Virus record (IMG/VR): IMGVR_UViG_2731957841_000003
From: a virus
Taxonomy: Duplodnaviria > Heunggongvirae > Uroviricota > Caudoviricetes
Length of the DNA stretch: 29,158 nucleotides
Strand: one strand, 5' to 3'
Position 1 is the stretch's first letter; each line of letters begins with the position of its first letter. Positions 114 through 29,158 of this stretch are shown here, piece by piece. Position numbers and translations under genes: made by a program. The notes under the pieces were generated by a model. The model had not been told where the DNA came from. It saw only the letters and a program-made list of their open reading frames with translations, and searched no databases.

Positions 114-311
114 CATATCACAAAACGATTACTCCATAACAGGGACAGCAGGCCACTCAATATCAGGTGCAGTTGATGTATCAACACGGTTCAGCAACAC
201 CCGATACTTCTTCCAGGCTTCCAGCAACGAGTTTTCTTCCTCCGTTGCGATCTCCAGCTCAACAACAGTCTGAACGTACCAGGAACAGCCTCCTTCAGGG
301 CTTGAAGGATA

Positions 312-3300
312 TCAATGTTCGCTTCCTGTTAACTGCCCGACAAGTGCAACCAGTTCGCTTACCTGATTTTCCAGAGTGCTGATCCGGGTGCCTGCTGTTG
401 CCATATTTTTACGTAGCGTTATGTTTTCCTCTTCCAGCGCGGTAACGCGACCATCTGTTTCACGGGCGACCTGAACAAGTAACCCCGTCACGGCGGAGTA
501 GTCAACATTAAGATAGCGAGTTTCTTCGCGTAGCTCGTTGCCGTCAACGGTCGGACCTTGCAACTCTTCACCATAATGAGTAAACGATCCCACAGCTTCA
601 GGTATCGCCTCCATTACTTCCTGTGCAATAACGCCAGCATAAGGCATTCCGTTTTCCTTGAGCGTGTAGGTGTACCCGTTCATTTTACGGATTGCTTTCG
701 TCGCGTCGCTGATAACGCGAATATCGTCTTTAAGGTCGCGGTCTGATGACTGATTCAGCGTTGTGCAATTAATAGCGCCATTTACATCAAACAACTGGCC
801 TGCTGATGTTTTTTGCGCATAAAACAGATACGCAGCAGACGTTCCAACCTCAAAAACGTTTTGTCGATCACTTGATCCCCATACTTTTGCGGCAAATGAT
901 AGTTCTGTATTACCTAAGTTCTGTAAAACAAAACGATTGCCAGTCCCTGATTGCTTTGTAAGGGTTAAATCAACAGTTGAGTTAACCTCATCCTTGTTGA
1001 TAGTGAGCGCCTGCGCTTTAGCCCCGTTAACAGCACCTGTTTTGAGTTGAACCGCGCCGTCATTACCATTTAGCAGTATCTCAGCTCCGCTAAAGAAATT
1101 TTTTAGCGACAGCATCTTACTTACGCCGACTGATGAACCCAACGCCCACGCGAGAGAATTACCGGTGCTATCAAACCCACGTACAAAGCAATCCATTTTG
1201 CTATAGTCTGACGTGCTTCCAAGGACATCAATCCGCCCTCCGCCAGATTTTAACGGGTTAGATGTGGTTAATGACCTGACAGCAAGATCGGTGGATGAAT
1301 TTAGATCGTCTACTGTTAGTAATTTCTTCCATTCCTGCATCGTTCCGTTTTCAACTGTTCTTCCCCAAAAACCGGAATTGCGGCCTCCGAACTGCACAGC
1401 ATAATTTTTACTAAATTGAACATGAATGCCGCCAAGAACCATAGAACCTGCCGGGCCGTTTGTACTGCCTGCGATTGGTCTAAATTTGTCGACGTTATCA
1501 GTATGCTGAGAGTTCCAGTCATGACCTGTTAATGTTGCGATTCCTGAGTTAGCTGTAATTAACCCAGACGCTTTAAGATTTTGCACATCAATTCTGTCGT
1601 TTGCGAAATTATATGCAATTGCGTTACTAACGCTTCCGGCATCATCATAATCGCGTTTCTGAATAAACCAGTCGCCAGCATTAGCAATGAGAGTATAAGT
1701 AGGCGTGTTAGCCGGGCGATCTGTTTCATTAAATCTTATTGCTGGGTTAGCGCTCCTTATTTGTAAAGGTTTTTCAACCGTTGATTTCAGTATCGCACTA
1801 TCTACAATTAAATTACCTTCTGAGTTAAGGTTTAGATATTTTGAAGCACCAGTTGAACCATCGTATGTAAACCTTATTGTTAATTGACCTGGCTCATTTG
1901 ATAAAGTCTCAACATACATATCAGCACCAAGACGCACAGTGCTGTCAGTTGCTAACAGTCTTGTATGGAGAATACCACTAGATGTGTATGTATTGGTCGA
2001 ATCACTATATCTATCAAGAAATAGACTGTTAAGTTGAGGGCTATTACTCCTGCCTAATCCAAGATTCGTTCTGGCACCATCAATAGTTGCCGCACCAGTG
2101 CCACCATGAGAAACATCAAGCGGTATCCATTCTTTTTGTGTATCGCTGTAACAACCCCATGATGAGGCGGTTAAACCCAGGCGCATGGATTTATCATGGT
2201 TATATAACCATGTTTCGCTATTCAATTGGTCAAGACGGTCCACTTCATTTTTGCGAGCGTGGCGTGTCCATTGCGGGCCTATTGTCGGACTCCAGCGATA
2301 GGTATAAAGCGAGCGAGTAGTCCATCCCTGAAATACACCTGTATACGCTGGTGTTCCATCTACCTGACTAATAAAACCAGTAAGATTACCTTCGCCTGAT
2401 GCAATAGACGGAAAACCTGTTGCGGAAGCAAAAATGCGCATAAAGCCAATATAACCGGATGGATCACCGGAAATATCAGGACAATTGCGCGGTGATGATC
2501 CCAAACCGATGTTAGCACCAACAATACCCTGAGCATGGTTGCGATAATTAAGTGCGTCCGCCGCAGATTTCGCCGCGTTTGTTTCACTGGATTTAGCATT
2601 AGTTTCGCTGGCTTTAGCGTTGGTTTCGCTGCTCTTTGCTGCTGCCTCGCTATTTTTCGCGTTGGTTTCTGATTTTTTGGCTGCTGTCGCGGAGTTTGCC
2701 GATGCAGTTTGTGAGTCTGCTGCCGCCTGTGCGCTGTTATCCGCATTCGTCTCAGACGTTTTTGCGGCCTTCGCGGAATTTCCTGCCGCCGTTGCCGAGG
2801 AAGCTGCACTACTGGCACTTGATGATGCGTTCGTTTCTGATGATTTCGCTGCCTCTTTTGAGGCCGCCGCATCCCGGGCTGAGGTGGCAGCTTCTGACGC
2901 TTTCGTGGTCGCGGTGGATGCAGAAGTGGCGGCTGATTGTTGTGACGCTGCCGCATTCGTTTCTGACGTTTTCGCCGCACCGGCACTGGTGGCCGCCGCG
3001 CTTTTTGAGGACTCTGCAGCGGCAGCACTTTTTGATGCTTCAGTAGCCTTTGTTGATGCCGTTCCTGCGCTGGAAGACGCTGACTGAGCCGACGTCGCGG
3101 CCTGCCCGGCTGATGTGCTGGCTGCACGTGCTGAGCCTGCAGCATCAGTCGCATGGGTTGCCGCCTCACGGGCTGATGTACCGGCATCGCTGGCTGACTT
3201 CTTCGCGGCTGCCGTGTTCTGTGCCACTGCGGACGCGTTACGCGCCACCTCTTCCACCATCAGTTCAAAGCGGCGCAGTGCCTCCGGACGGGCATCATCC

Positions 3301-3485
3301 TCCGTCATAGCACCGAGAAAATCATTCAGCGTACCCGGTTGTGAGTCTTCATACACGGTGATGGTCCCGGCATGCGATGGCGGGAACCATGTTATCCAGT
3401 GACGAGAAATACGTGTTCTGCTTACCGTTATCCGTTGTCTGTGTGCGGGGAGTTCTGGCTTTCGGTGCCAGCATCTGAGCCACAC
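312..3485 (-). CDS. stf: Side tail fibre protein (lambda Stf-like) with Ala/Ser/Thr-rich repetitive shaft and C-terminal intramolecular-chaperone-like domain; extreme N-terminus is chimeric
   Basis: 1057-aa ORF. From about residue 34 (FPPSHAGTITVYEDSQPGTLNDF...) it matches my recollection of lambda Stf; the first ~33 codons overlap gene I in another frame. Long KTSETNA-type repeats. C-terminal ~150 aa resemble the self-cleaving chaperone domain of endosialidase/L-shaped tail fibres (recollection). Confidence 0.85.
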   Translation of the reverse strand: MWLRCWHRKPELPAHRQRITVSRTRISRHWITWFPPSHAGTITVYEDSQPGTLNDFLGAMTEDDARPEALRRFELMVEEVARNASAVAQNTAAAKKSASDAGTSAREAATHATDAAGSARAASTSAGQAATSAQSASSSAGTASTKATEASKSAAAAESSKSAAATSAGAAKTSETNAAASQQSAATSASTATTKASEAATSARDAAASKEAAKSSETNASSSASSAASSATAAGNSAKAAKTSETNADNSAQAAADSQTASANSATAAKKSETNAKNSEAAAKSSETNAKASETNAKSSETNAAKSAADALNYRNHAQGIVGANIGLGSSPRNCPDISGDPSGYIGFMRIFASATGFPSIASGEGNLTGFISQVDGTPAYTGVFQGWTTRSLYTYRWSPTIGPQWTRHARKNEVDRLDQLNSETWLYNHDKSMRLGLTASSWGCYSDTQKEWIPLDVSHGGTGAATIDGARTNLGLGRSNSPQLNSLFLDRYSDSTNTYTSSGILHTRLLATDSTVRLGADMYVETLSNEPGQLTIRFTYDGSTGASKYLNLNSEGNLIVDSAILKSTVEKPLQIRSANPAIRFNETDRPANTPTYTLIANAGDWFIQKRDYDDAGSVSNAIAYNFANDRIDVQNLKASGLITANSGIATLTGHDWNSQHTDNVDKFRPIAGSTNGPAGSMVLGGIHVQFSKNYAVQFGGRNSGFWGRTVENGTMQEWKKLLTVDDLNSSTDLAVRSLTTSNPLKSGGGRIDVLGSTSDYSKMDCFVRGFDSTGNSLAWALGSSVGVSKMLSLKNFFSGAEILLNGNDGAVQLKTGAVNGAKAQALTINKDEVNSTVDLTLTKQSGTGNRFVLQNLGNTELSFAAKVWGSSDRQNVFEVGTSAAYLFYAQKTSAGQLFDVNGAINCTTLNQSSDRDLKDDIRVISDATKAIRKMNGYTYTLKENGMPYAGVIAQEVMEAIPEAVGSFTHYGEELQGPTVDGNELREETRYLNVDYSAVTGLLVQVARETDGRVTALEEENITLRKNMATAGTRISTLENQVSELVALVGQLTGSEH
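2560..3200 (-). repeat. Imperfect tandem coding repeats inside the tail fibre shaft (SETNA/KSAA-type units)
   Basis: Recurring DNA units such as gcgttggtttc[g/t]ctg / tttagc... on the plus strand, matching the repeated protein motifs ...KTSETNA...KSSETNA... Confidence 0.6.
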
Positions 3486-3909
3486 CGCCCAGGATCATAC
3501 TGGCCCCTGCCGCATACATGCCCGATACAGCCGCGGTACCCAGCCAGCCCACAGGGTTCCACCATGCCACCGCAATCAGCGCCGCACCCAGCACTGCCTG
3601 AAAAACACCGCCACTTTTAGCTCCCGCCAGACGCGGCACAATGTGGATCACGGCACCATTTGCCAGCGGCTCATTAAGACGGGCAGATAATTCATTTTCT
3701 CCTGCATCACGCCCGACAATGCGCACCTGATACCAGCCGTCGCTCAGTTTCTGACGAAACGCCGGGAGCTGTGTGGCCAGTGCGCGGATGGCTTCAGCCC
3801 CCGTTTTCACACGAAGGTCGATGCGGCGGCCAAATCGTTGTAAATCCCCGTAAAGGCAGATGCGTGCCATTCCCGGTGACGCCAGAGGGAGTGTGTGCGT
3901 CGCTGCCAT
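3349..3909 (-). CDS. I: Tail tip assembly protein I-like, C-terminus replaced after ...SSLDNMV (deletion junction)
   Basis: 186-aa ORF starting MAATHTLPLASPGMARICLYGDLQRFGRR..., which I recognise as lambda gpI. Lambda gpI is 223 aa by memory; here the frame diverges after DNMV and stops 11 codons later. Confidence 0.8.
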   Translation of the reverse strand: MAATHTLPLASPGMARICLYGDLQRFGRRIDLRVKTGAEAIRALATQLPAFRQKLSDGWYQVRIVGRDAGENELSARLNEPLANGAVIHIVPRLAGAKSGGVFQAVLGAALIAVAWWNPVGWLGTAAVSGMYAAGASMILGGVAQMLAPKARTPRTQTTDNGKQNTYFSSLDNMVPAIACRDHHRV

Positions 3910-4549
3910 TTGTCGGTGTACCTCTCTCGTTTACTCAGTTGTTCAGGAATATGGTGCAGCAGCTCACCGTCACCACAGTAAATGGCGGCATGATTCGGCA
4001 CCGATGAACCAAAACAGCACAGCAGCACGTCGCCAGGCTGCGCCTCTGTCAGTGGGACACGGTAAAAACCCGTTGCCTCCATATTGTCAAGATAGAGATT
4101 CTGGCCGTGACGCCACCAGTCATCCCCGCGATGAAAATCCGGCATCTCAATTCCCGCCAGATGGTAAGCGTCCCGGAACAGCGTGTAACAGTCCGTCACC
4201 CCGTGCTCAAAGCGCCGCCCGGTGAGATGCGGCACACAGAGGAATTTATGAATCGCCCCCGGCAGACCAGCCACCACGGCAAATCACTCTGCACCTGCAG
4301 CCGCCGGTCGGCCTCACTCAGCCAGGGCAGACCACCGGGGTGGCTGTGGACCAGCGCCACAATCTCTCCCTGCATTTCTGCCTGCAGCCAGTCTTCCGGC
4401 GACATACGGAAATACGCCTCCGGCTCACCGGAGATATTCACGCAGGGGAAATATCTTTCCCCCTCCGGCGTGCTTACCACGAAGCCGCACGACTCCGCTG
4501 GCGCACATCGCCGGGCGTGCGCCAGAATCGCTGATTCTGTCTGTGTCAT
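3807..4549 (-). pseudogene. K: Tail assembly protein K-like (MPN/JAMM HSHPGG motif plus NlpC/P60-like C-terminal part), split by a frameshift into ORFs 4196..4549 and 3807..4277
   Basis: N-terminal ORF ends ...DLPWWLVCRG then out-of-frame tail; C-terminal ORF continues ...IHKFLCVPHLTGRRFEHGVTDCYTLFRD... in another frame. The frame switch maps to the C5 run at 4256..4260. Confidence 0.7.
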
Positions 4550-4554
4550 GGGAT

Positions 4555-5253
4555 TTACTGCGAAAGTTTGTTAATGGAAAGGAAGCCGCCAAAGTTGCCG
4601 ACGTTATTGCGAAACTTACAGCCGCTCAGGCATTTGCTGCATTTATCCTTCGTGATATCGGACGTCGGCTGGTCATATTCATCCGCGACTGCCGGACCGT
4701 GATAACCGCACTCATCACCGCGATAGGTCCAGGTGCAGGTGTTGGCCAGCATGATACGTCCCGGAAAAACAGCGCCGTCCGTTTCCGTCGGTGTGGAGAG
4801 CACAAAGGAGGCACTGACCGCGCTCAGTTCGCTGCACTGCTCGATGCGCCAGCGGCTGATCACCTCCTGCTCCGGATCGGCGTCACTGTTTCCGTTGACG
4901 AAGTTCACCGCATCCAGAAAACGGGCGTAAACCTTACGCCGGACCACCGTTCCGCCGACCAGACTCTGCAGATCTTCCGCCATCCCGGTGATCATGCCGT
5001 GCAGGTTAGAGACCGTCAGTGTCGGACGGGCAGCACTGCCCTTGCCGTTCATCTCAAATCCACTCCCCTGAATGGGATAGGCCTGATACTGCCGACTCTG
5101 CCAGGTGACCGACTCACCTTTTTCGTTCTGCTCATTACAGAAAAAGTAGCGATCCCCGCCTACCTCGGTCAGGTCGATTTCCCAGAGCACCACGCTGGCC
5201 GACTGCTCCGCACGAATGCATTCATTCAGCGTTTCCTGTTGTATGTCCTGCAT
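4555..5253 (-). CDS. L: Minor tail protein L
   Basis: 232-aa ORF; sequence and length match my recollection of lambda gpL; position between M and K. Confidence 0.85.
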   Translation of the reverse strand: MQDIQQETLNECIRAEQSASVVLWEIDLTEVGGDRYFFCNEQNEKGESVTWQSRQYQAYPIQGSGFEMNGKGSAARPTLTVSNLHGMITGMAEDLQSLVGGTVVRRKVYARFLDAVNFVNGNSDADPEQEVISRWRIEQCSELSAVSASFVLSTPTETDGAVFPGRIMLANTCTWTYRGDECGYHGPAVADEYDQPTSDITKDKCSKCLSGCKFRNNVGNFGGFLSINKLSQ

Positions 5254-5591
5254 CAGATTACCACTTCGTCAAACTGACACGAAAAATCGGTATAGGTGAT
5301 ATGTTCTGTCGCTGACCACGTTCGACACACCACTCTGATTTTTCTGTTAATACCCGGCGGGCGCCAAAAAAAAGATTTATAGCCTTCATGCCGGGCTAAA
5401 AATTTTTCAAATGAATCACGTTCATTCGCCTCAACTTTGAAATCACAGGTGAAAACGCGCAGAGAATGATTAAGTCCATTTGGACTTCGTTGCTCATAAC
5501 CATCGCCAAATCTTACAGTTTTTATCGATGGTTTATTTTCTGTTTTCATTCCATCCTCTGGTAACCAGTGAAATTCTTCCGTATTAGCCAC
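5253..5591 (-). CDS. M: Minor tail protein M
   Basis: 112-aa ORF with ...VRFGDGYEQRSPNGLN... resembling lambda gpM; start overlaps the tape measure stop and its stop overlaps the L start. Confidence 0.8.
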   Translation of the reverse strand: MANTEEFHWLPEDGMKTENKPSIKTVRFGDGYEQRSPNGLNHSLRVFTCDFKVEANERDSFEKFLARHEGYKSFFWRPPGINRKIRVVCRTWSATEHITYTDFSCQFDEVVI

Positions 5592-8500
5592 TTAACATTC
5601 CCCCATCACGTCGCATATTTAACAGATTGCCCTGCACCCGCTGATCAACCATCCCCATAAGTGCTTTTATTGCCTGAGGGCCAATCTCTCCATTCTGGCC
5701 GTCATTTTGAATAGTGATTTGGTATACAGGGGCATAGGTAATATCTCCGCCTCCATTACCACTTTTACTATTAATAGCTCTGACACCAAGAGAACCATCG
5801 GAAGTTCGTGTTAATGGCATAATGGCTTCCGGACCAGCCTCACCAAAAACACCAGCCCCTCTTGCAAAAGCAAAAAATTGCGGGGAGTCATAAATACCGT
5901 TCGAATACGTGTTCAATGACGGAGACTCATAAACACCGCCCTTTGCATTCGGAATAAATTTACTAATAGCACTCCCGATAGTTCCTAAAATCCCCCCAGA
6001 AGAACTGTTACTAATGCTGTCGAAAATCCCAGTAATTGAAGCCTTTAATGCTATTCGACTAAGATCCGAAATCACGGAAGTAGCGAAAGAACGAAAATTT
6101 GCCTTGCCTGTCGTGACAAAATCACCCAGCGCATCGGTCATTCCATCAAACATCTGAGTCGTGGTTGATTTTATCTGCTCACTGATATCCTTAGTGTCAT
6201 CCAGCCAGTTATTGAATCCCTGGGAGGCACCACTAACCCAGTCTCCTGCCTGAATATCGAGCTGCTCGTTTTTCTGTCTGACAATTTCTTTTTCTCGTTC
6301 CAGAGCATCATTCAGAGCCTGCATTTTCTCCTGAAAAACATGATTTGACATCCCACGGGATTTATCTGCATAGTCACGTTCAAGTTGCAGACGCTGATTG
6401 TTATATTCACGTTCAATCCGCAGTAATTCCTGCTGGCGTTGCTGATTTTTATCGCCAACCCCATAACCAGCAATCTGAATATCATACCCCTGTTGACGAT
6501 TATCAATCGAAGCCTGCAATGAATCACGCCATGCAGCTATTTCGGCGGATTCCTTGATTAGCCTGTTATTTTTTTCAATCGCAACATTTTTCTCCATCAA
6601 CGCGGTTATTTCTTCCCGGTGTAAGAGAAGCGATTTCTGATCCTGGGTTAATTTCGATGACGGTCGTGACTCCAGGTCGGCAATCTGCTGACGCCACTTA
6701 ACCAGTTCCTGTTCAGAGGAACTTAATTTAACGGTTAATTCAGTTTGTGAACTTAGTAACGCATTCTGTTGATTCAGATGATCAATCATTCGTTGGGCAG
6801 CATCATCCGAATAACCTTTCGCCTTTGGTTGCTTTGGATCTTTATAACGTTCATTTATTTGAGCGATAAAATTATTATATTCTTCCTTTGAATACTGACT
6901 CTTTAGCTTTTCCAGTTTTGCAAGTTCACTAGCTCTCTGCTGCTCCCGGGTCTGATATTGTTTTGAAAAGGCATCTGCTCTCTGTCTGAGTTCAATTCCT
7001 TCCTGTTGTCGCTTGTTGTAATCGTTTATTGATGAATTTAGGACGTCCTGAGCAATTTTTTCTGCTTGAAGTACGCCCAATTGCTGCTTTAATCGTGCCA
7101 GCCTTTTATTTTGAGCTCCGCCATCTCCAATGCCACCTAACCCGAAAACTCCGGGTCGGGTATTTTTTCTATTTCATCAATTTGACGGAGAACATCTGAG
7201 ATTTTTTGATCAAGGGAGGCCTCACGGCCAATATCCAGCATGGAATCCCATGCCCATTTTGCGGAGTCTGCGACAGCTTTCCATGCAGTCTCAAGATAAC
7301 CAAGATTTTCTTTAATCTGGTTGGTGCGCTGGATCATTGAGGATGAGTATGCTTCTGTCGCAATGCGGGCGGCCTCCTGCTGGTTCCCTTCATCCTGTAG
7401 CGCCTTAATCTGGTTATAAGTCGCAATTGTCAGAAAATGGTACTGATCATTAAGTTTTGATATGGCACTGACAGGATCCTTTGCAATTTCATTGAAGTCA
7501 TTAACCAGTTGTTCGGTTGATATTCCTGTTACTTCGCTCGTTTTTACTATCGCTGTCGTCACTTGCTCCAGCGAACTGCTCGCTACCTTTCCCGAACGCA
7601 CAAGCTGGTTTAATACTGCCGCCGCAGCGCCAGTTGTCGAATCAGCCGCATTCCCGGCACGTTGAGCTATATCGGCCAATTGCCCGCTGGTTGTCCCCAA
7701 CTGATTTCCGGTAAGAATAAGAGATTTATTAAATTCGTCCTGCTCCTGAGAGCCTTTATAGTAAGCCAGCCCTAAGACGCCAACGGCTGCTGCGGCCAGG
7801 GTAAAAGGATTAATTAATCCCAGCACATAAGAACCAACACCTTTGATCGCCGGGCCAATCCCACCGAACATATCTTTTAGCTGGCCGCCCTGCTGCATTA
7901 ACACCATAAAAGGCGACTGACCAGTGGACAACCCAACAACAATATCCGTCATTTGTGCAGGCAACATGCGCATAGCAAAAGCCGTTTGTTTTGCCGACAT
8001 TCCGGTTTTGCTTAATTGAGATTGAGTAACCTCAAGCTCACTCCGCATAGCACGAAGTTTTCCAGAAAGTTCCTCATACATTTCAGGAGAGAGCATCCCC
8101 TTAGCTTTTGCTTCATTGAGCTGTTTCTGTTGTTCTACCAGACGATTAAAAGCAGTTCCGACAGGGTCAAGTTGAGCAATCAGACGTTGCAAAGCAGCAA
8201 CCTGTTCATCATGCGCTTTTGCTGCTTCTCGCTCTGCCTGAGCCTCTCCGGTAAGCTCTCGCCGTGTTTCCTGTATTTTTCGGCTATAATTCTCAAACTG
8301 AGAACCATTTATTTTCCCGGATGCAAACGCAGCATTAAGTTCATCCTGCTGTTGTTCAAGATTTCTTAGCGCCGCAGCCAGAGGGTCGATCTTGTCCAGC
8401 ATTCTTTGAAAGGCCTGAGCCTGCGCTTCCTGCTGGGCGGCAGCAAGTTTTCCGGCCTTCTCGGCTTCTCTCTGCGCTTGCGCAACCCCGCTCAATTCCT

Positions 8501-8816
8501 CTGTGGTTTCATTAAGTTTACGGACAAGAAATTCATATTCTTCTTTATCAATAAGCCCTTTATCGAAAAATTTCTTTAATTCAGAATAGCGTCGACCGAC
8601 AGTATCAATTGCGGCACCAACTGGATCAATAGCTGCTTTTAATTTTGCGAGCGCGTTCTTCTCATCTTCTGTTGCCTTAGTCACTTTCCCTGCGCTATTT
8701 GCAGCAGTTTCCCCGGCCTGCGTCATTTTGACTAATGAGGAGGTCAGATTGTCAGCATTATTTTTTGCTCCAGTGCTATCAATAATTATTGCGAGACGCG
8801 AGGTTTGCTCTGCCAT
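5584..8816 (-). pseudogene. H: Tail tape measure protein, interrupted by a frameshift (ORFs 7137..8816 and 5584..7080)
   Basis: Two long coiled-coil-rich ORFs in different frames, both open across 7140..7173. The region contains a T6/A6 homopolymer (7163..7168). Combined length of about 1060 aa and position upstream of M/L/K/I fit a tape measure protein. Confidence 0.75.
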
Positions 8817-8979
8817 TTATTAAAACTCCAGACAACAAAAAGCCCACCGAAGTGGGTTTCAGGCGACATAATAGTAGATATAGCGATTACGAGGCCACGC
8901 AATGCTTTTCTCCAGGAGCATCATCGATTTAATTAAAGACACCATCACATCTCTGTAACAGAGTGTACGTAATTAACAA

Positions 8980-9578
8980 CTACACACACTGATCCTGAAA
9001 ATACTGGTCATCCAGTGCAAAGATCACTGCTTCAAACTCATCGCGCTCAATCAATACCGGATGAGTGGCTAAATATTCATTTATCTCTGTCAGAGATAAA
9101 GGCAAAGGCACCCCGGTCATTCCAGCATAACGTCGGGCACGGGATATTACCGAATAGGCGTACAACAATTCCTTAAGCACCGGGTCTATTTCTGGTTCCG
9201 GTATCGGTGGCAACCTGAGTTTTTCTCGCTTCCATCTTGCCTTTTCCCCCCTTTCTCCCCCGAACTCCGATAACCACCGCTGGGCGGCTATGGCTTTTTT
9301 ATCGTATCCTGCTTCTGCTGCTCTTTACCCTGGGCGATGCTGGCTGCTTCTGCAAGGATCTGCCAGTACAACTCTGGATTCTGCTTAAGCAGCGCGATCC
9401 CTCGTTCTGGCGTATATTCCAGTGCAACCTCAGCACCATTAACCAGTTCACCAACCCCTTTCCAGTCTTTCAGCAGATAACGAGCAGCATTATCAATGAG
9501 TAAATCATCAACAGAATCTACCTCGGAAACCTTTGAAATATCAAACTCCTTCGTTCCGACGTGCAAACTGGCATCCAT
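8980..9578 (-). CDS. GT: Tail assembly chaperone GT-like fusion produced by a predicted -1 ribosomal frameshift at 9294..9300
   Basis: The -1 frame is open from 9324 down to 8980 and joins the G frame at the heptamer (mRNA ...AUA AAA AAG CCA UAG; -1 reading gives KKAIAAQRWLSEFGG...PPIPEPEIDPV...). Conserved G/GT arrangement upstream of tape measure genes. Confidence 0.55.
9288..9578 (-). CDS. G: Tail assembly chaperone, G-like (0-frame product)
   Basis: 96-aa ORF immediately upstream of the tape measure gene; ends ...DTIKKP* with an A_AAA_AAG slippery heptamer in frame 6 codons before the stop. Confidence 0.6.
   Translation of the reverse strand: MDASLHVGTKEFDISKVSEVDSVDDLLIDNAARYLLKDWKGVGELVNGAEVALEYTPERGIALLKQNPELYWQILAEAASIAQGKEQQKQDTIKKP
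9294..9300 (-). other. Putative programmed -1 frameshift slippery heptamer A_AAA_AAG
   Basis: Plus-strand CTTTTTT is AAAAAAG on the minus strand, in the X_XXY_YYZ register of the G ORF, with the -1 frame open downstream. Confidence 0.55.
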
Positions 9579-9598
9579 TTTCTCAATGTGACGACGGA

Positions 9599-9796
9599 TT
9601 AATGCATTACGGGAGCGATACTGATCGTTATCGCTGCTTCACCTTTCGCTCTGCCCTTACGGATGGCCGCATAAAAATCTGTCATTGCTTCCCGATTTTC
9701 TTTCAGTCGGTTCAGATCAACATCCAGAACGTCAGCGATTTGTTGTGCAGTCATCCGGCACGCTGCCAGAGACTCGACTTTCGAATACGGAATCAT
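9599..9796 (-). CDS. Small hypothetical protein with HTH-like segment (possible remnant of a packaging/terminase small subunit gene)
   Basis: 65-aa ORF (…MTAQQIADVLDVDLNRLKE…). Its 5' end overlaps the 3' end of the upstream ORF by 65 nt. Weak call. Confidence 0.25.
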   Translation of the reverse strand: MIPYSKVESLAACRMTAQQIADVLDVDLNRLKENREAMTDFYAAIRKGRAKGEAAITISIAPVMH

Positions 9797-10664
9797 TTGT
9801 CACCCCCATTGATATGCAGGGTGTCTTCTTCCTGTATTTTTCGTGAAGGATTTTTACTGCAGCGTTGTTCCAGGTGACCTGATGGTGAATGCGTTTATGG
9901 CTGGCACCCATCAGTGAAATTTTTACGCACGACGGCGCATACATGACGGAGTAAAAACTTTTAACGTAGGTTCCGGAATCCAGATACAGCTCGGTCATTC
10001 CGCCGCTGTTTTTCTGCGTCTGTTTCTGCCCTAACTGGACAGCACCGATCGTCATAAACAATTCACCACAGCGACCGAGATTCGTGTACGTATTCACATC
10101 CTCGTTAATGCGCCCCATGAATGAGAACGGTCGATCAACCGAACAGATAAAGCTGTTCATTGCCTTGCGTTTCACCCACGAAGCATGGCCGCCATTGTCA
10201 CCAAGAAAATCCCCGCCCTGCGACATAGCGATGGAAAGAGCAGGTATTGATTCGTAGTACGCCAGCATTTCAGAAAGGATCGCATCCAGTTTCCTTATCG
10301 GAAAATAGGCCTGGTCATAGTTGCGATCCACCCGAAACTGGAACTCGTGATAATCATCATCGAGCTGAATGAAGTATTTACACCCGACCAGTTTTGCCAG
10401 GTCGAAACAGGCATTACGGGCGTAAAAAATTGAGCGGCGGTCACAGAAATTATCGGCTTCGTCAAAACGACTGGCGATATCGGTTTTGGAAAACACCAGC
10501 ACCTGTTCACCAAATTCAGCCATGTACTGATGCCGTGTCTTATCTTCATCATCAACAACGATAAAAATTTTCCCGGTATAGCCAGCACGACGCAACGTCC
10601 GGTAAGTCAGAACTTTGTCTGGTCGCCCGTGAGTCAGAATAAAGGCGCAAAAATCATCACGCAT
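9732..10664 (-). CDS. Hypothetical protein, unknown function (possible GT-A-like fold: ...IFIVVDDED... and ...QLDDDY...)
   Basis: ORF listed as 317 aa; likely start is the ATG at 10664 (MRDDFCAF...) preceded by GGAGGAGGAGG, 2 nt after the ParB-like stop. No motif secure enough for a functional call. Confidence 0.5.
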   Translation of the reverse strand: MRDDFCAFILTHGRPDKVLTYRTLRRAGYTGKIFIVVDDEDKTRHQYMAEFGEQVLVFSKTDIASRFDEADNFCDRRSIFYARNACFDLAKLVGCKYFIQLDDDYHEFQFRVDRNYDQAYFPIRKLDAILSEMLAYYESIPALSIAMSQGGDFLGDNGGHASWVKRKAMNSFICSVDRPFSFMGRINEDVNTYTNLGRCGELFMTIGAVQLGQKQTQKNSGGMTELYLDSGTYVKSFYSVMYAPSCVKISLMGASHKRIHHQVTWNNAAVKILHEKYRKKTPCISMGVTNDSVFESRVSGSVPDDCTTNR

Positions 10665-11448
10665 ATTCCTCCTCCTCACCACCATGCATGATCTCCACCA
10701 TGCGCTGCGTCATCCGGACAAATCCATTTTCAATAGCCTGCTGATAATCAATGATCACCAGCGCCGACTCCTCGAAAAAACACTGAATTTCAGCGGGGGC
10801 GTGAGCGTAATAGTCCGCAATTCTGCTGAAATTAAACACCGTGTGACGTTCTGCCGCACACAGGAGGAATTTCTCAATATCAGGCTCAAGGGACGCCGAA
10901 CGTATCCGGCTGATCAGCTCCTGAGTTTTCGTATCGTCGTACAGTTCACTGATATCCGGTTTACCGCCCGACGGCTCATAAACAGGCGTATCAATTTTCG
11001 TCGTATACGGCTCCTCCTCATTTCCTGTACCGGGCAAAACATCCGTCAACAGTTCATCAATTTCTGTCGGGATGAAGCCTGTCAGGGAGACATCAAAATC
11101 AGCATTGATTAGGTCCGACAGCTCCATCCGCAACAGATCTTCATCCCAGCCAGCATTCATCGGCAGGCGATTATCTGCCAGGCGGTACGCCTTTTTCTGC
11201 TCATCCGTCAGGCCAGACAGAACAATGACCGGAACAGAATCCATTTTGAGCATTTCAGCCGCCATAACACGACCGTGACCCGCAATAATTTCGCCCTTTT
11301 CGTCAATCAGCACCGGATTAGTCCAGCCGAATTGCTTAATACTTTCTACCAGTTGTGCCACCTGCTCAGGGCTGTGCGTCCTGGCGTTGTGCGCATACGG
11401 TGACAATTCTTGTAATGGGCGATAGACTATCTTTAATTTCTCGCTCAT
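10657..11448 (-). CDS. ParB-like nuclease domain protein (ParB/Srx N-terminal domain)
   Basis: N-terminus ...LQELSPYAHNARTHSPEQVAQLVESIKQFGWTNPVLIDEKGEIIAGHGRVMAA... fits the ParB N-terminal domain signature; acidic C-terminus. Confidence 0.7.
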   Translation of the reverse strand: MSEKLKIVYRPLQELSPYAHNARTHSPEQVAQLVESIKQFGWTNPVLIDEKGEIIAGHGRVMAAEMLKMDSVPVIVLSGLTDEQKKAYRLADNRLPMNAGWDEDLLRMELSDLINADFDVSLTGFIPTEIDELLTDVLPGTGNEEEPYTTKIDTPVYEPSGGKPDISELYDDTKTQELISRIRSASLEPDIEKFLLCAAERHTVFNFSRIADYYAHAPAEIQCFFEESALVIIDYQQAIENGFVRMTQRMVEIMHGGEEEEYA

Positions 11449-11585
11449 ACAGCCTTGCTTTATGAATAAAACGCACCCCAGCAGCCAGTGCTACTGGGGG
11501 CGGAGGTGTTGCTGGTAAAGTTAGGTATTGGATCAATGAGTGAGTCAACATAATATTAAACTCACAATTATAAATCAGCCATATA

Positions 11586-13043
11586 TTAGGAGCGCCAAAA
11601 AAAACCTGAAAACAATATAATAACAGGATAAATTTCAAGGCGACCAAGAATCATAGCTATGCACATTAAATATTTTGCAATGTCATTAAGCACTCCGAAT
11701 GACGATGCAGTAGCCCCAAAACCTAATCCCATATTATTAATACATGCAGCCACTGTTGCAAATGATGTAAGAAAATCATATCCCATACCATTTAACACCA
11801 GTATAAAAAACACCGTAAAGAGAGTATAAAGAAAAAAGAAACTCCATACAGACCTCATTACACGATCTGTAACTATCTTCCCTCCTACATTTACACTCAA
11901 CAACGCTCTGGGATGAGAAAGCTGATTTATCTCGTGTTTGCTTTGTTTGAAAAGTATAAGAAATCGAAGTGACTTAATTCCACCACAAGTTGAACCTATA
12001 CATCCCCCAAAGAAACTTGACAACAGCAAAAACACTATCGTGTGCGTGGGCCAGCTTGCATAATCCTGCGTAGCTAAACCATTATCAGTGAGCATGGAGC
12101 TGGCAAGAAAAAACGAATGAATAAAACTTCCATGCAAGTCATACATACCTATATGCCAGACCTGGAAAGAGGTAACAATGATCACCCCTAAGGCTATTAA
12201 CAGAAAGAAACGAAGTTCAATATCTCTGATTAAAGGTTTTATCGTTTTCCTGCTAATAACAATATACCAAAGAGTGAAGTTGAAAGCCGATAGCAGGGAA
12301 AAAGAACCAGCCACCAGCTCAACCAAATAGTTATTAAAATATCCGATACTCTCGCTATGAGTTGAGAAACCACCAAGCGAAACTGTGGAAATCCCGTGAC
12401 AAATAGCATCAAACAAAGGCATTCCTGCAAGTCTATAACAGACAATACAAGCAATACCTAATAAAGAATAAGTTATCCACAGTGTCCGTGACGTATCGGC
12501 CAGGCGGGGAGTGAGTTTGTCATCCTTAAATGGCCCCGGCATTTCTGACTGATAAAGCTTTGCACCACCAATACCCAATAATGGCAATACAGCAACCGCC
12601 AGAACAATAACTCCTAAACCACCTATAAAATTTAACTGTGACCGATAGTACAAATATGCCCGAGGTAATGAACTAACATCATCAATTACAGTTGCTCCTG
12701 TTGTTGTTATTCCAGAAATCCCTTCAAACAGAGCATCAATGAACGTTAAATTAAGTTCTGAGTCAATCCATAAAGGGAATGCACTAATAACAGAAAACAA
12801 AATCCAAAACATTACAATTATAATAAACCCATCACGGGTACGTAATTGAATGCCAGATTTCTTAGTTGTATACCACGCTCCGCCACCAATACAAAAAAAT
12901 ATAACGAAAGTTATAAAGAAAACGAACAGGCTTTTTTCTTTATAAAACAATGCTACAACCATTGGTGGCAACATTGAAAGACTATAGAGCCAAACCAGGA
13001 ACCCACACATATGAGTAACAACTCTTACATGAGATGTATTCAT
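11586..13043 (-). CDS. trkG: Potassium uptake protein TrkG (Trk system membrane subunit), AT-rich prophage cargo
   Basis: 485 aa from MNTSHVRVVTHMCGFLVWLYSL...; polytopic hydrophobic protein; markedly AT-rich relative to flanking phage genes. K-12 Rac carries trkG (established). Confidence 0.9.
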   Translation of the reverse strand: MNTSHVRVVTHMCGFLVWLYSLSMLPPMVVALFYKEKSLFVFFITFVIFFCIGGGAWYTTKKSGIQLRTRDGFIIIVMFWILFSVISAFPLWIDSELNLTFIDALFEGISGITTTGATVIDDVSSLPRAYLYYRSQLNFIGGLGVIVLAVAVLPLLGIGGAKLYQSEMPGPFKDDKLTPRLADTSRTLWITYSLLGIACIVCYRLAGMPLFDAICHGISTVSLGGFSTHSESIGYFNNYLVELVAGSFSLLSAFNFTLWYIVISRKTIKPLIRDIELRFFLLIALGVIIVTSFQVWHIGMYDLHGSFIHSFFLASSMLTDNGLATQDYASWPTHTIVFLLLSSFFGGCIGSTCGGIKSLRFLILFKQSKHEINQLSHPRALLSVNVGGKIVTDRVMRSVWSFFFLYTLFTVFFILVLNGMGYDFLTSFATVAACINNMGLGFGATASSFGVLNDIAKYLMCIAMILGRLEIYPVIILFSGFFWRS

Positions 13044-13180
13044 ATCTAAATATTCTTTCAATTATAACCACCTTGCTGCAATATTATGATTATACTGTAT
13101 AAAATTTAACTCCTCTTAGATCTTACTTCACTGTTCCTTATGAAACAATCATCAAAATGAATCATATTGTAGTTAAGATT

Positions 13181-13645
13181 TTACTTTAAACACTGTTCGG
13201 TTATGTATTGCTGAGCACCTTCAAGTTGGGCCTGCATCATTACCAGTCGTTCCCGGAGGGTGAAATAATCCCGTTCAGCGGTGTCTGCCAGTCGGGGGGA
13301 GGCTGCATTATCCACGCCGGAGGCGGTGGTGGCTTCACGCACTGACTGACAGACTGCTTTGATGTGCAACCGACGACGACCAGCGGCAACATCATCACGC
13401 AGAGCATCATTTTCAGCTTTCGCATCAGCTAACTCCTTCGTGTATTTTGCATCGAGCGCAGCAACATCACGCTGACGCATCTGCATGTCAGTAATTGCCG
13501 CGTTCGCCAGCTTCAGTTCTCTGGCATTTTTGTCGCGCTGCTCTTTGTAGGCGGTGGCGTTATCACGGTAATGATTAACAGCCCATGACAGGCAGACGAT
13601 GATGCAGATAACCAGAGCATAAATAATCGCGGCGACTCTGCTCAC
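13181..13645 (-). CDS. Rz: Spanin inner-membrane subunit Rz (GTG start overlapping endolysin stop)
   Basis: (V/M)[29 protein letters not shown]... closely matches lambda Rz by recollection; GTGA start/stop overlap with the endolysin gene. Confidence 0.8.
13240..13425 (-). CDS. Rz1: Spanin outer-membrane lipoprotein Rz1, embedded in the +1 frame of Rz
   Basis: 61-aa [27 protein letters not shown]...PPPPP...; lipobox LVVVGC and proline-rich region; entirely inside Rz. Confidence 0.8.
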
Positions 13646-18592: not shown

Positions 18593-18607
18593 TTGGAGGA
18601 GGTGGTT

Positions 18608-23713: not shown

Positions 23714-24475
23714 TTACCCCCTGAAGCCTGGCGGGATCGCACTATCCGGTAACGAGACGGTGTTAACCTGTCGGAGTAACGTCTCAGGTCGAACACCTTT
23801 CGGCGCGAACAAGCCCTGGTATTCATTGGCGATGCTGTGTCGAATCACCTGCTCAGGTGAAAAACCCTGCTGGCGGAATTTTTCCAGCTCCCGTATCGCC
23901 CCGTTAGCGCCCTGCTCCGTTCGAATCGGTTTTCGCAATGCCTGGCGAAATTCAACCCACTCACGCCAAAGCGAGACAGAAATCCAGTTCGGCAAAGCAA
24001 TATCCAGAGGGTCAAACTTTTTGACACCTCGATTCCCCCGGGGGGGATTTAGGGGGGGATCTGTTTTTAGATCTTTATCTGTATCTTTATTAGTTGCCTT
24101 TGTGTTGACATCATGTTCAAACACCACTTCAACATCTGTTTGAACACCTGTTAAATTTCTCTCTTGTTTTGTTTGAACATCTGCTTCCTTTCTGCTTCTT
24201 CTGGCCTGAACAGATGCTTTTCCTGCGGCTGATTTTTTGGTTAATTTTTCCCTGACTGATGCCAGATCTTCCTCAATCCGAAGATGCACCCATTCCTCGC
24301 CGTTATCGCAAAAAAACTCCTGCAAGGATGGTTCAACATCAGCCCATCGCTCGTTAGTCAGACGGGCAATTTTTGCCAGCCTGTTTTTAGGTATTGGCTT
24401 TCCTGTTTGCCAGTAATTGAACATCAGCAACAAATACGCACCATGCTCCTCTGCTGAAGGGTAATCGTGTTTCAC
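23714..24475 (-). pseudogene. ydaU: DUF1376 replication protein (YdaU-like), 5'-truncated at a deletion junction
   Basis: ORF begins with GTG at 24475 ((M)[24 protein letters not shown]...) and an in-frame stop lies 2 codons upstream, so the usual N-terminal ~25-30 residues of this family are absent. K-12 YdaU is 285 aa by memory versus 253 here. Confidence 0.6.
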
Positions 24476-24476
24476 A

Positions 24477-26373
24477 CATCACTCGCACGGCTTCCGGTGC
24501 TAATGCTGGCGGCGGAAACCTCACCGATCGCGGCGAAGGTTTCGTACACGATCTGACGTCACTGGCGCGGGACGTAGCCACTGGCGTACTGGCCCGTTCA
24601 ATGGATCTGGACATCTATAACCTTCATCCGGCACACGCTAAACGCATTGAGGAAATTATCGCTGAAAATAAACCGCCCTTTTCTGTTTTCCGCGACAAAT
24701 TCATCACCATGCCTGGCGGGCTGGATTATTCCCGCGCCATCGTGGTTGCGTCCGTAAAAGAAGCACCAATTGGGATCGAGGTCATCCCCGCGCACGTCAC
24801 TGAATATCTGAACAAAGTACTGACTGAAACCGATCATGCCAACCCTGATCCGGAAATCGTGGATATTGCCTGCGGTCGCTCCTCTGCCCCGATGCCGCAG
24901 CGAGTAACAGAAGAAGGAAAACAGGATGATGAAGAAAAACCGCAACCATCTGGAACAACGGCAGTTGAACAGGGAGAGGCTGAAACAATGGAACCGGACG
25001 CAACTGAACATCATCAGGACACGCAGCCGCTGGATGCTCAGTCACAGGTAAATTCTGTTGATGCGAAATATCAGGAACTGCGGGCAGAACTCCATGAAGC
25101 CCGGAAAAACATTCCATCAAAAAATCCTGTCGATGCCGATAAATTGCTTGCTGCATCACGTGGTGAATTTGTTGACGGAATTAGCGACCCGAACGATCCG
25201 AAATGGGTAAAGGGGATCCAGACTCGCGATTGTGTGTACCAGAACCAGCCAGAAACGGAAAAAACCAGCCCGGATATGAATCAACCTGAGCCAGTAGTGC
25301 AACAGGAACCGGAAATAGCCTGCAATGCCTGCGGCCAGACTGGCGGGGATAACTGCCCTGACTGTGGTGCGGTGATGGGCGACGCAACATACCAGGAAAC
25401 ATTCGATGAAGAGAGTCAGGTTGAAGCTAAGGAAAATGATCCGGAGGAAATGGAAGGCGCTGAACATCCGCACAATGAGAATGCTGGCAGCGATCCGCAT
25501 CGCGATTGCAGTGATGAAACTGGCGAAGTCGCAGATCCCGTAATCGTAGAAGACATAGAGCCAGGTATTTATTACGGAATTTCGAATGAGAATTACCACG
25601 CGGGTCCCGGTGTCAGTAAGTCTCAGCTCGATGACATTGCTGATACTCCGGCACTGTATTTGTGGCGTAAAAATGCCCCCGTGGACACCACAAAGACAAA
25701 AACGCTCGATTTAGGAACCGCTTTCCACTGCCGGGTACTTGAGCCGGAAGAATTCAGTAACCGCTTTATCGTAGCACCTGAATTTAACCGCCGGACAAAC
25801 TCCGGAAAAGAAGAAGAGAAAGCGTTTCTGAGGGAATGCGCAAGCACAGGAAAAACGGTTATCACTGCCGAAGAAGGCCGGAAAATTGAACTCATGTATC
25901 AGAGCGTTATGGCTTTGCCGCTGGGGCAATGGCTTGTTGAAAGCGCCGGACACGCTGAATCATCAATTTACTGGGAAGATCCTGAAACAGCAATTTTGTG
26001 TCGGTGCCGTCCGGACAAAATTATCCCTGAATTTCACTGGATCATGGACGTGAAAACTACGGCGGATATTCAACGATTCAAAACCGCTTATTACGACTAC
26101 CGCTATCACGTTCAGGATGCATTCTACAGTGACGGTTATGAAGCACAGTTTGGAGTGCAGCCAACTTTCGTTTTTCTGGTTGCCAGCACAACTATTGAAT
26201 GCGGACGTTATCCGGTTGAAATTTTCATGATGGGCGAAGAAGCAAAACTGGCAGGTCAGCTGGAATATCACCGCAATCTGCGAACCCTGGCTGACTGCCT
26301 CAATACCGATGAATGGCCAGCTATTAAGACGTTATCACTGCCCCGCTGGGCTAAGGAATATGCAAATGACTAA
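24477..26373 (+). pseudogene. recE: Exonuclease VIII RecE, 5'-truncated (C-terminal ~2/3 retained; first in-frame ATG at 24601)
   Basis: 590-aa ORF from the 24601 ATG whose frame is open upstream to 24421; C-terminal nuclease region; TAA overlaps the recT ATG (ATGACTAA). K-12 RecE is 866 aa by memory. Confidence 0.75.
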
Positions 26374-27922: not shown

Positions 27923-29158
27923 ATGTCTAAATTACCAACAGGTGTCGAGATTCGAGGTAAATACATTCGCATCTGGTTCATGTTTCGAGGAAAACGATGT
28001 CGGGAAACATTGAAAGGCTGGGAGGTTACTAACAGTAACATTAAAAAAGCTGGGAATTTAAGAGCGTTGATAGTTCATGAAATCAATTCCGGTGAGTTTG
28101 AGTATTTAAGACGTTTTCCCCAGCCCAGCACTGGGGCAAAAATAGTGACAACGAGGGTCATAAAAACGTTCGGGGAGCTTTGTGATATCTGGACAAAAAT
28201 TAAAGAAACAGAGTTAACAACAAACACAATGAAGAAAACGAAATCACAATTAAAAACACTCAGGATAATAATTTGTGAGAGTACTCCGATATCGCATATT
28301 CGTTATAGCGATATCTTAAACTACCGGAATGAACTGCTGCATGGAGAAACGCTTTACCTGGATAATCCAAGATCCAACAAAAAAGGAAGAACCGTGCGCA
28401 CAGTTGATAACTATATCGCCCTGCTCTGTTCGTTGTTACGTTTTGCGTATCAGTCGGGATTTATATCAACCAAACCATTTGAAGGAGTAAAGAAATTACA
28501 GAGAAACAGAATAAAGCCTGACCCGTTATCTAAAACAGAATTCAATGCATTAATGGAAAGTGAAAAAGGACAGAGCCAGAACTTGTGGAAATTTGCCGTA
28601 TACTCCGGGCTTCGTCACGGGGAACTGGCTGCTCTGGCGTGGGAGGATGTGGATTTCGAGAAGGGAGTTGTGAATGTCAGAAGAAACCTGACGATACTGG
28701 ATATGTTCGGTCCCCCAAAAACAAATGCGGGGATCCGGACGGTAACACTACTGCAGCCTGCTCTTGAAGCACTGAAGGAGCAATACAAACTGACCGGGCA
28801 TCATCGCAAAAGCGAAATCACTTTTTATCATCGGGAGTACGGCAGAACCGAAAAGCAAAAACTGCATTTTGTTTTCATGCCCAGAGTGTGTAACGGAAAA
28901 CAGAAACCTTATTACTCGGTAAGCAGTTTGGGTGCGAGATGGAATGCAGCAGTAAAACGTGCTGGTATTCGCCGCCGTAATCCGTACCATACGCGGCATA
29001 CTTTTGCCTGCTGGCTGTTGACGGCAGGAGCGAACCCGGCGTTTATAGCCAGCCAGATGGGGCATGAAACTGCGCAGATGGTGTATGAAATTTACGGTAT
29101 GTGGATTGATGACATGAACGACGAACAGGTAGCCATGTTGAATGCGCGGTTATCGTAG
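27923..29158 (+). CDS. intR: Tyrosine site-specific integrase (Rac IntR-like)
   Basis: 411-aa ORF with the C-terminal catalytic region ...HTRHTFACWLL...GHETAQMVYEIYGMW...; ends at the last base of the window. Confidence 0.9.
   Translation: MSKLPTGVEIRGKYIRIWFMFRGKRCRETLKGWEVTNSNIKKAGNLRALIVHEINSGEFEYLRRFPQPSTGAKIVTTRVIKTFGELCDIWTKIKETELTTNTMKKTKSQLKTLRIIICESTPISHIRYSDILNYRNELLHGETLYLDNPRSNKKGRTVRTVDNYIALLCSLLRFAYQSGFISTKPFEGVKKLQRNRIKPDPLSKTEFNALMESEKGQSQNLWKFAVYSGLRHGELAALAWEDVDFEKGVVNVRRNLTILDMFGPPKTNAGIRTVTLLQPALEALKEQYKLTGHHRKSEITFYHREYGRTEKQKLHFVFMPRVCNGKQKPYYSVSSLGARWNAAVKRAGIRRRNPYHTRHTFACWLLTAGANPAFIASQMGHETAQMVYEIYGMWIDDMNDEQVAMLNARLS

Follow-up and report, generated by a model that had tools for sequence, protein, structure and literature searches.

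A one-base contraction at a homopolymer run, perhaps an assembly under-call, splits the tape measure gene of a decayed Rac-type Escherichia coli prophage

The window, the whole stretch of 29,158 nucleotides analyzed here, carries in order intR (27923..29158, plus strand), recT, a truncated recE, trkG (11586..13061, minus strand), ydaY', a tape measure gene, M, L, K, I' and a tail fibre gene. The tape measure gene is divided between two minus-strand reading frames. An ORF of 559 amino acids at 8816..7137 ends at a TAG codon (7139..7137), and a second frame, −1 relative to the first, is open from 7173 down to 5584, its upper bound being a TGA codon at 7176..7174. The first possible start within this downstream frame is a TTG at 7080, upstream of which no Shine-Dalgarno sequence was found. 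The features of the split gene are as follows.

7137..8816, minus strand: upstream tape measure ORF of 559 amino acids, comprising the N-terminal half and 9 out-of-frame residues (IPDPEFSG*, after ...EIEK), with Pfam domain TMP_2
5584..7173, minus strand: downstream tape measure frame (−1), the C-terminal half, with Pfam domains TMP_4 and Tape_meas_lam_C
7140..7173, minus strand: the sole interval in which both frames are open, between the stops at 7137..7139 and 7174..7176
7163..7168, minus strand: A6 run (T6 on the plus strand), the lesion, identified from the sequence and from the A7 of relatives as a one-base contraction of A7

Pfam family membership was judged by the curated cut-offs. The upstream ORF matches PF06791 (TMP_2) with E = 3e-82 and 275.7 bits (cut-off 30.2), and the downstream frame matches both PF24622 (TMP_4; 1e-24, 86.9 bits, cut-off 27) and PF09718 (Tape_meas_lam_C; 1e-26, 92.9 bits, cut-off 23). 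The ORFs at 8816..7137 and 5584..7080, described in the initial annotation as fragments of one tape measure gene, are located correctly, and as these domains are distributed over both of them, the pair is no product of chance but a single tape measure gene of the lambda type, cut in two. The gene also occupies the position usual for its family, with ydaY' and a tail assembly chaperone ORF upstream and with Phage_min_tail, Phage_tail_L, K and I downstream, collinear with the related locus L007. Instead of the single uninterrupted ORF typical of the family, it has a stop after codon 559, and the window therefore holds a frameshifted allele.

Since only positions 7140..7173 are open in both frames, any frame-restoring indel is confined to this interval, and the A6 run on the coding strand is the sole homopolymer of six or more bases within it. 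The co-open segment and the tttttt at 7163..7168 had been singled out before, and all of these coordinates were borne out. Adding one A rejoins the ORFs, as had been proposed, and yields a protein without stops; its length, 1077 amino acids, replaces the earlier estimate of about 1060 codons. In the window allele, the frame is broken after residue 551.

A megablast search returned 10 phage-record matches at 98.4–99.7% identity, none of which carries A6. In Escherichia phage vB_EcoS-473R12, Salmonella phage SPF_0923 and E. coli WI2, the gene is one CDS of 3234 nt and 1077 codons. Alignment to intact tape measure genes, the check originally suggested, uncovers exactly one indel in the 3.2-kb gene, three relatives reading GATGAAATAG-AAAAAAA-TACCC where the window has six A's. 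The repaired window protein differs from those of the phages and WI2 at 5–17 residues. The three genes, lambda gpH-type tape measure genes of Rac-type prophages (WP_000840625.1 in WI2), resemble the window gene in their TMP_2, TMP_4 and Tape_meas_lam_C domains, in their location between a ydaY-type chaperone pair and M-L-K-I, and in a nucleotide identity of 98.5–99.7%; they differ from it in having A7 and an intact frame, where the window has A6 and a frame broken after residue 551. Judged by these alignments, the ancestral run is A7 and the window allele a one-base contraction. An intact ancestral allele and a single lesion at a run, as would be seen in a pseudogene made by homopolymer slippage, were both found.

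Conservation of the run among more distant homologues was examined by tblastn against phages. The Pseudomonas, Vibrio and Gifsy-2 alignments end at query residues 39–50, just short of the site. One homologue spans it, that of a Flyfo siphovirus with 37% identity, in which Lys-Asn is written AAG AAT and no run is present; deep conservation of the A-run was rejected on this evidence.

The surrounding prophage has lost far more than a reading frame. Comparison with fuller relatives locates three deletion junctions, and a second frameshift lies in the K gene.

9636..9639: deletion junction, about 10 kb lost (terminase, portal, capsid, head-tail and tail tube genes; positions 2000..12001 of L007 are absent), also in contigs L102 and L103
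3382..3388: deletion junction, about 4.5 kb lost (3' end of I, J, lom and 5' end of the tail fibre gene), also in contigs L102–L108
24455..24457: deletion junction, about 4.3 kb lost (5' part of recE, racC, kilR, sieB, the repressor region, ydaT and the 5' end of ydaU)
3807..4549, minus strand: K gene fragments (4196..4549 and 3807..4277); one added G gives a 247-aa protein
4256..4260, minus strand: G5 run (C5 on the plus strand), a G6-to-G5 frameshift in the K (C40 peptidase) gene, common to the window, L102 and L103

Decay of the tail module thus extends well beyond two frameshifts, to three multi-kb deletions. The best whole-region match (98.8% identity) still has J, and the 9637 junction was found neither in the 5426 complete E. 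coli genomes nor in any IMG/VR contig. None of the 4111 complete E. coli genomes with a match to the stretch around the K lesion carries it; since three assemblies (the window, L102 and L103) do, the lesion is a real, inherited step of decay. Further loss has occurred within the lineage, as contigs L105 and L106 fuse position 25346 straight to 4057 and thereby lack another 21 kb. The prophage is a badly decayed, defective Rac-type E. coli prophage that is dead already and from which no tails are possible with either A6 or A7. As no tail tube or tip is left for the protein to work with, the tape measure gene is under no selection here, and with head genes, tail tube and J absent and K broken, A6 has no functional consequence, be it an error or a real mutation.

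The comparison that bears most directly on the status of the missing base is that with contigs of the same lineage. The 3385 junction gives rise to a lineage-specific I' fusion protein, and a search with this protein retrieved contigs L102 (SRR2070768) and L103 (SRR30896079). Both span window positions 13285..3051 and share with the window two deletion junctions (9637 and 3385) as well as the K G5 lesion. Over 10.2 kb there are 0 SNPs between the window and these contigs, yet both carry A7 and an intact tape measure ORF of 1077 amino acids, to which the repaired window protein is identical (0 of 1077 residues differ). A6 against A7 is the sole window-specific difference. All remaining differences are one-base contractions on the side of L102 or L103, and at the five other homopolymers where one of them deviates, the window has the length found in unrelated genomes. 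Because these contigs under-call other runs, their A7 is not an over-call. A second search for the lineage, via a lineage-specific antisense ORF over the K lesion, again retrieved only L102 and L103, and no other assembly of the lineage with A6 was found. Within the lineage, the tape measure A6 is therefore private to the window's assembly. The lesion is not common to independent assemblies of the lineage, the two available ones reading A7, and the discrepancy with the same clone is confined to homopolymer length and accompanied by no substitution, as for a sequencing or assembly error. On these sequence comparisons, the two frameshifts of the tail module are not equivalent, the K lesion being lineage-wide and real and the tape measure A6 private.

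The frequency of A6 was gauged with an 80-nt query spanning the site, which matched 702 complete E. coli genomes. Three of them (0.4%) have A6; the other 699 do not, and every sampled non-identical match spans one extra base. IMG/VR, GTDB and metagenomes were counted with a pattern accepting A6 or A7. Neither the 52 loci in IMG/VR viral contigs nor the single locus among GTDB representative genomes (E. ruysiae only) has A6, so that 53 of 53 read A7, and A6 occurs at 2 of 31 loci in metagenome contigs. When all loci are aligned, 89 have A7 and 14 have A6, eight of the latter having been fetched via the truncated product; no A8 is found among the 103.

The three complete genomes with A6 are E. 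coli WP5-S17-ESBL-10 (NZ_AP022105.1), 6EVA (NZ_CP138428.1) and cS100a (NZ_CM176582.1), and PGAP labels the tape measure gene in each a “frameshifted” pseudogene. Annotation of the A6 frameshift therefore exists already in other genomes. These pseudogenes share with the window gene the A6 at the same run, the length of 3233 nt and the first stop at codon 560. They differ in belonging to other haplotypes, with 13–19 differences from the window in the gene, and to much fuller prophages that retain J, lom, tail tube and capsid; their A6 alleles are independent events or errors in other lineages.

Across all occurrences, A6 alleles lie on at least 3–4 haplotype backgrounds, each with an A7 neighbour 0–7 SNPs away over 1.8 kb, which indicates that A6 arises repeatedly. 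Strains from Japan and Malawi (L004 and L006) are 100% identical over 13.8 kb, A6 included, and by this identity A6 is genuinely inherited in at least one occurrence, the clone that they represent. A metagenome contig assembled with SPAdes at roughly 11x coverage has A6 as well. Eight public contigs encode the exact truncated product of 559 amino acids, and in five of these eight, further homopolymers within a few kb are also short by one base, which marks the A7 tract as a site of recurrent under-calling. The A7 run is a hotspot of mutation and of miscalling alike.

We favor, with a confidence somewhat above even, the reading that the split is an ordinary, non-programmed one-base homopolymer contraction from A7 to A6, private to this assembly, with an under-call as its likeliest source. 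The assembly would then have under-called the homopolymer length, and the actual DNA would probably have A7 and an intact tape measure gene. As written, A6 would put ribosomes out of frame after Lys-551, with a stop nine codons later, and would leave the C-terminal 526 codons, with TMP_4 and Tape_meas_lam_C, without a usable start. One indel together with zero substitutions since the split from L102 and L103 is the signature of homopolymer miscalling. The rarity of A6 in unbiased samples speaks for an under-call as well. In long-read assemblies of bacteria, wrong homopolymer length is the residual error met most often (PMC8812927), and many of the frameshift pseudogenes that have been reported are artefacts of assembly (PMC11017572). 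The lesion resembles the homopolymer errors of long-read, 454 or Ion Torrent assemblies in the loss of one base from a 7-nt run without substitutions, and in the under-calling of the same site in several visibly noisy assemblies. It differs from such errors in that the window is free of further private homopolymer discrepancies over its 29 kb. The two remaining homopolymer differences of the window recur in independent assemblies; apart from the K and tape measure frameshifts, the only such difference from a relative is A4 at 18595, a natural variant also present in five complete genomes. Since its other homopolymers match unrelated genomes or independent assemblies, the window contains at most one error in 29 kb. 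This otherwise clean record counts in favor of a genuine, very recent slipped-strand deletion from A7 to A6 in the DNA of the isolate, which would make the gene a true pseudogene and one more step of decay. Such a deletion would persist in the remnant, where the gene is under no selection; the terminase-to-tail-tube block, the J-lom region and the immunity region are gone, K is truly frameshifted, and the 25346-to-4057 fusion in L105 and L106 shows a lineage still decaying. In addition, the A7 is among the two longest runs in the tape measure gene, the same change is inherited in the L004/L006 clone, and A6 recurs on several haplotype backgrounds. A real deletion has to contend with L102 and L103, which read A7 although no SNP in 10.2 kb separates them from the window, and with the visible noise of many other assemblies in which A6 is called at the site. 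Moreover, as it evolved toward the window's lineage, the region acquired roughly one frameshift for every 45 substitutions, so that a real indel without any substitution is a priori an event of a few percent. A real deletion is thus a serious but tentative alternative, with a likelihood well short of even, and from the lineage comparison we infer that the missing base is rather an assembly miscall, a judgement held a little more firmly than an even one. The earlier proposal that the K and tape measure frameshifts together indicate either tail-module decay or homopolymer error proves apt in both its parts, as K is real decay and the tape measure A6 leans toward error.

Readings in which the two frames have a function must be weighed against the same data, and two further features bear on them.

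7135..7161, minus strand: small hairpin of 8+3 bp, starting 1 nt past the A-run and the U that follows it; the 76-nt fold (7100..7175) has −17.6 kcal/mol and z = −0.76 against 200 shuffles
9294..9300, minus strand: heptamer A_AAA_AAG, in phase, where ydaY' ends; the −1 frame stays open as far as 8980

Full-length tape measure protein could be made from the A6 allele by programmed or adventitious recoding, either through a −1 slip of the ribosome on the A-run or through an A added by RNA polymerase. The shift required is indeed −1, a Lys codon AAA in the P-site is able to re-pair with AAA in the −1 frame, a hairpin comes after the run, and low-level, unselected slippage at A-rich sites is known in E. 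coli (PMC5009743). A −1 site is recognized by an in-phase X_XXY_YYZ heptamer, a more-stable-than-chance structure 5–9 nt downstream and a conserved two-frame arrangement, and none of the three is found here. The zero frame reads ATA GAA AAA ATA, the hairpin follows after 1 nt and its fold is no better than that of shuffled sequences, and these three results led us to reject a programmed −1 frameshift with a stimulatory structure. The two-frame arrangement is not conserved either, with 699 of 702 genomes lacking A6 and all IMG/VR and GTDB loci reading A7, and the homologue with 37% identity has no run at all. In bacteria, the runs at which transcription slips efficiently are described as about 9 A or T long (PMC5009743), a length that the 6-nt run does not reach, and the tail tube and J, with which the tape measure protein would work, are deleted. 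Recoding is therefore very improbable, and trace-level, unselected slippage at A6 is the most that could occur. The split does recall the programmed −1 frameshift of the lambda tail assembly chaperones G/GT (Levin et al. 1993; Xu et al. 2004; both as cited in PMC5009743), in that a −1 change takes place at an A-rich run in the tail module. Sites of the G/GT type belong to the chaperone gene, which precedes the tape measure gene; here the site is apparently the heptamer at 9294..9300, which looks like the standard programmed frameshift of the chaperone pair and has the layout reported for lambda G/GT (PMC5009743). The ORF downstream of this heptamer matches PF23812 (Phage_TAC_18) at 20.8 bits, below the Pfam cut-off of 27. 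The tape measure site is unlike it in being out of phase, in lacking a conserved two-frame state and in being in frame in nearly all relatives.

A function might instead be sought in the A7 tract itself, as a phase-variable on/off switch or, because the intact allele reads GAA AAA AAT and thus has an in-phase A_AAA_AAT heptamer, as a site generating a truncated isoform. A6 does recur on several haplotypes. In a contingency locus, both tract lengths would be common in populations, with expansions as well as contractions; here the off state is confined to 0.4% of complete genomes, no A8 allele occurs among 103 loci, the tract is short for such a locus, and the run is missing from the diverged homologue. 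For the truncated isoform, the hairpin spacing is wrong. A switch or isoform of this kind is hardly credible, and it is highly doubtful that the A7 tract is in any form a selected hypermutable or slippery site, as an A7/A6 switch or as the source of a −1 truncated N-terminal isoform via A_AAA_AAT; if it were, the A6 allele of the window would count as leaky, not null. Least credible of all is that the two ORFs form a functional two-gene tape measure, a version to which we assign almost no weight. Whole Pfam domains are kept in each ORF, but the upstream product ends in 9 out-of-frame residues, the downstream frame can start only at the TTG at 7080, the gene is a single ORF in relatives and in the same-lineage contigs, and PGAP marks the A6 allele as frameshifted in three genomes. 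Since no start codon with a ribosome-binding site serves the second ORF, the functional split was rejected.

The split matters chiefly for annotation, in which the locus should be called a single gene, frameshifted as it stands or intact should the reads give A7, rather than two. The tape measure split implies no new biology. What the locus does provide is a clean internal control within one tail module, in which the shared K frameshift is real and the private tape measure frameshift may be an artefact. Pseudogene counts in prophage remnants thus mix true decay with homopolymer miscalls.

A further frameshift lies in the K gene, which encodes a C40 peptidase, where a run of six G residues has been shortened to five and the reading frame is divided in two.

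4256..4260, minus strand: G6-to-G5 frameshift in the K gene
4196..4549 and 3807..4277, minus strand: K gene fragments split by the G6-to-G5 change

The shortened run is common to L102 and L103, two contigs of the same prophage lineage, yet it was found in 0 of the 4111 complete E. coli genomes matching the K stretch. Because of this distribution, K is a genuine, lineage-specific pseudogene, in contrast to the tape measure lesion.

Two other homopolymers differ between the window and its relatives. At 11837, within trkG, the window and unrelated genomes carry T6, versus T5 in the same-lineage Logan contigs L102 and L103, where trkG is consequently split; either the two contigs under-call this run systematically, or the sub-lineage carries a real mutation. 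At 18595, adjoining the DUF1971 gene, the window has A4 compared with A5 in the relative NCTC10444. As five complete E. coli genomes share A4, the shorter run at this position is a natural variant.

Compared with fuller Rac-type prophages, the window has undergone three multi-kb deletions, each with an overlap of 3-7 nt at its junction.

3382..3388: deletion junction, J-lom lost
9636..9639: deletion junction, head and tail-tube block lost
24455..24457: deletion junction, recE-5'/immunity block lost

The deletion at 3385 altered the 3' end of the I gene, resulting in an I' ORF (3349..3909) that crosses the junction and is adjoined by a 5'-truncated tail fibre gene. In L105 (ERR14980390) and L106 (ERR14980339), two further contigs with this junction, window positions 25465..25346, in the recE region, are fused directly to 4057..202. 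The join of 25346 to 4057 implies either a same-lineage variant from which another 21 kb has gone, the tape measure gene with it, or a chimeric contig.

The tail assembly chaperone region contains a candidate frameshift site, and a glycosyltransferase-like ORF lies nearby.

9288..9578 and 8980..9213, minus strand: chaperone-region ORFs, upstream ydaY' and downstream ORF
9294..9300, minus strand: in-phase A_AAA_AAG heptamer at the end of ydaY'
9732..10685, minus strand: PF20691 TAGT ORF (E=3e-35), annotated as 'hypothetical' in relatives

The 3' end of ydaY' reads ...ATA AAA AAG CCA TAG, placing the heptamer in phase two codons ahead of the stop codon, and about 100 codons of open -1 frame extend from it. 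The arrangement resembles the programmed frameshift that is standard for tail assembly chaperones of the G/GT type; the Phage_TAC_18 match of the downstream ORF falls below the cut-off. PF20691 TAGT, a TET-associated glycosyltransferase family, is here encoded inside a Rac-type prophage, adjoining a ParB_N/ynaK-like gene (10657..11448, minus strand).

In L001 (ON470581 with four sister phage records, all partial), the tape measure gene is split at another place: a substitution, rather than the A-run, creates the first stop, which falls at codon 833, so that breaks in this gene are not restricted to one site.
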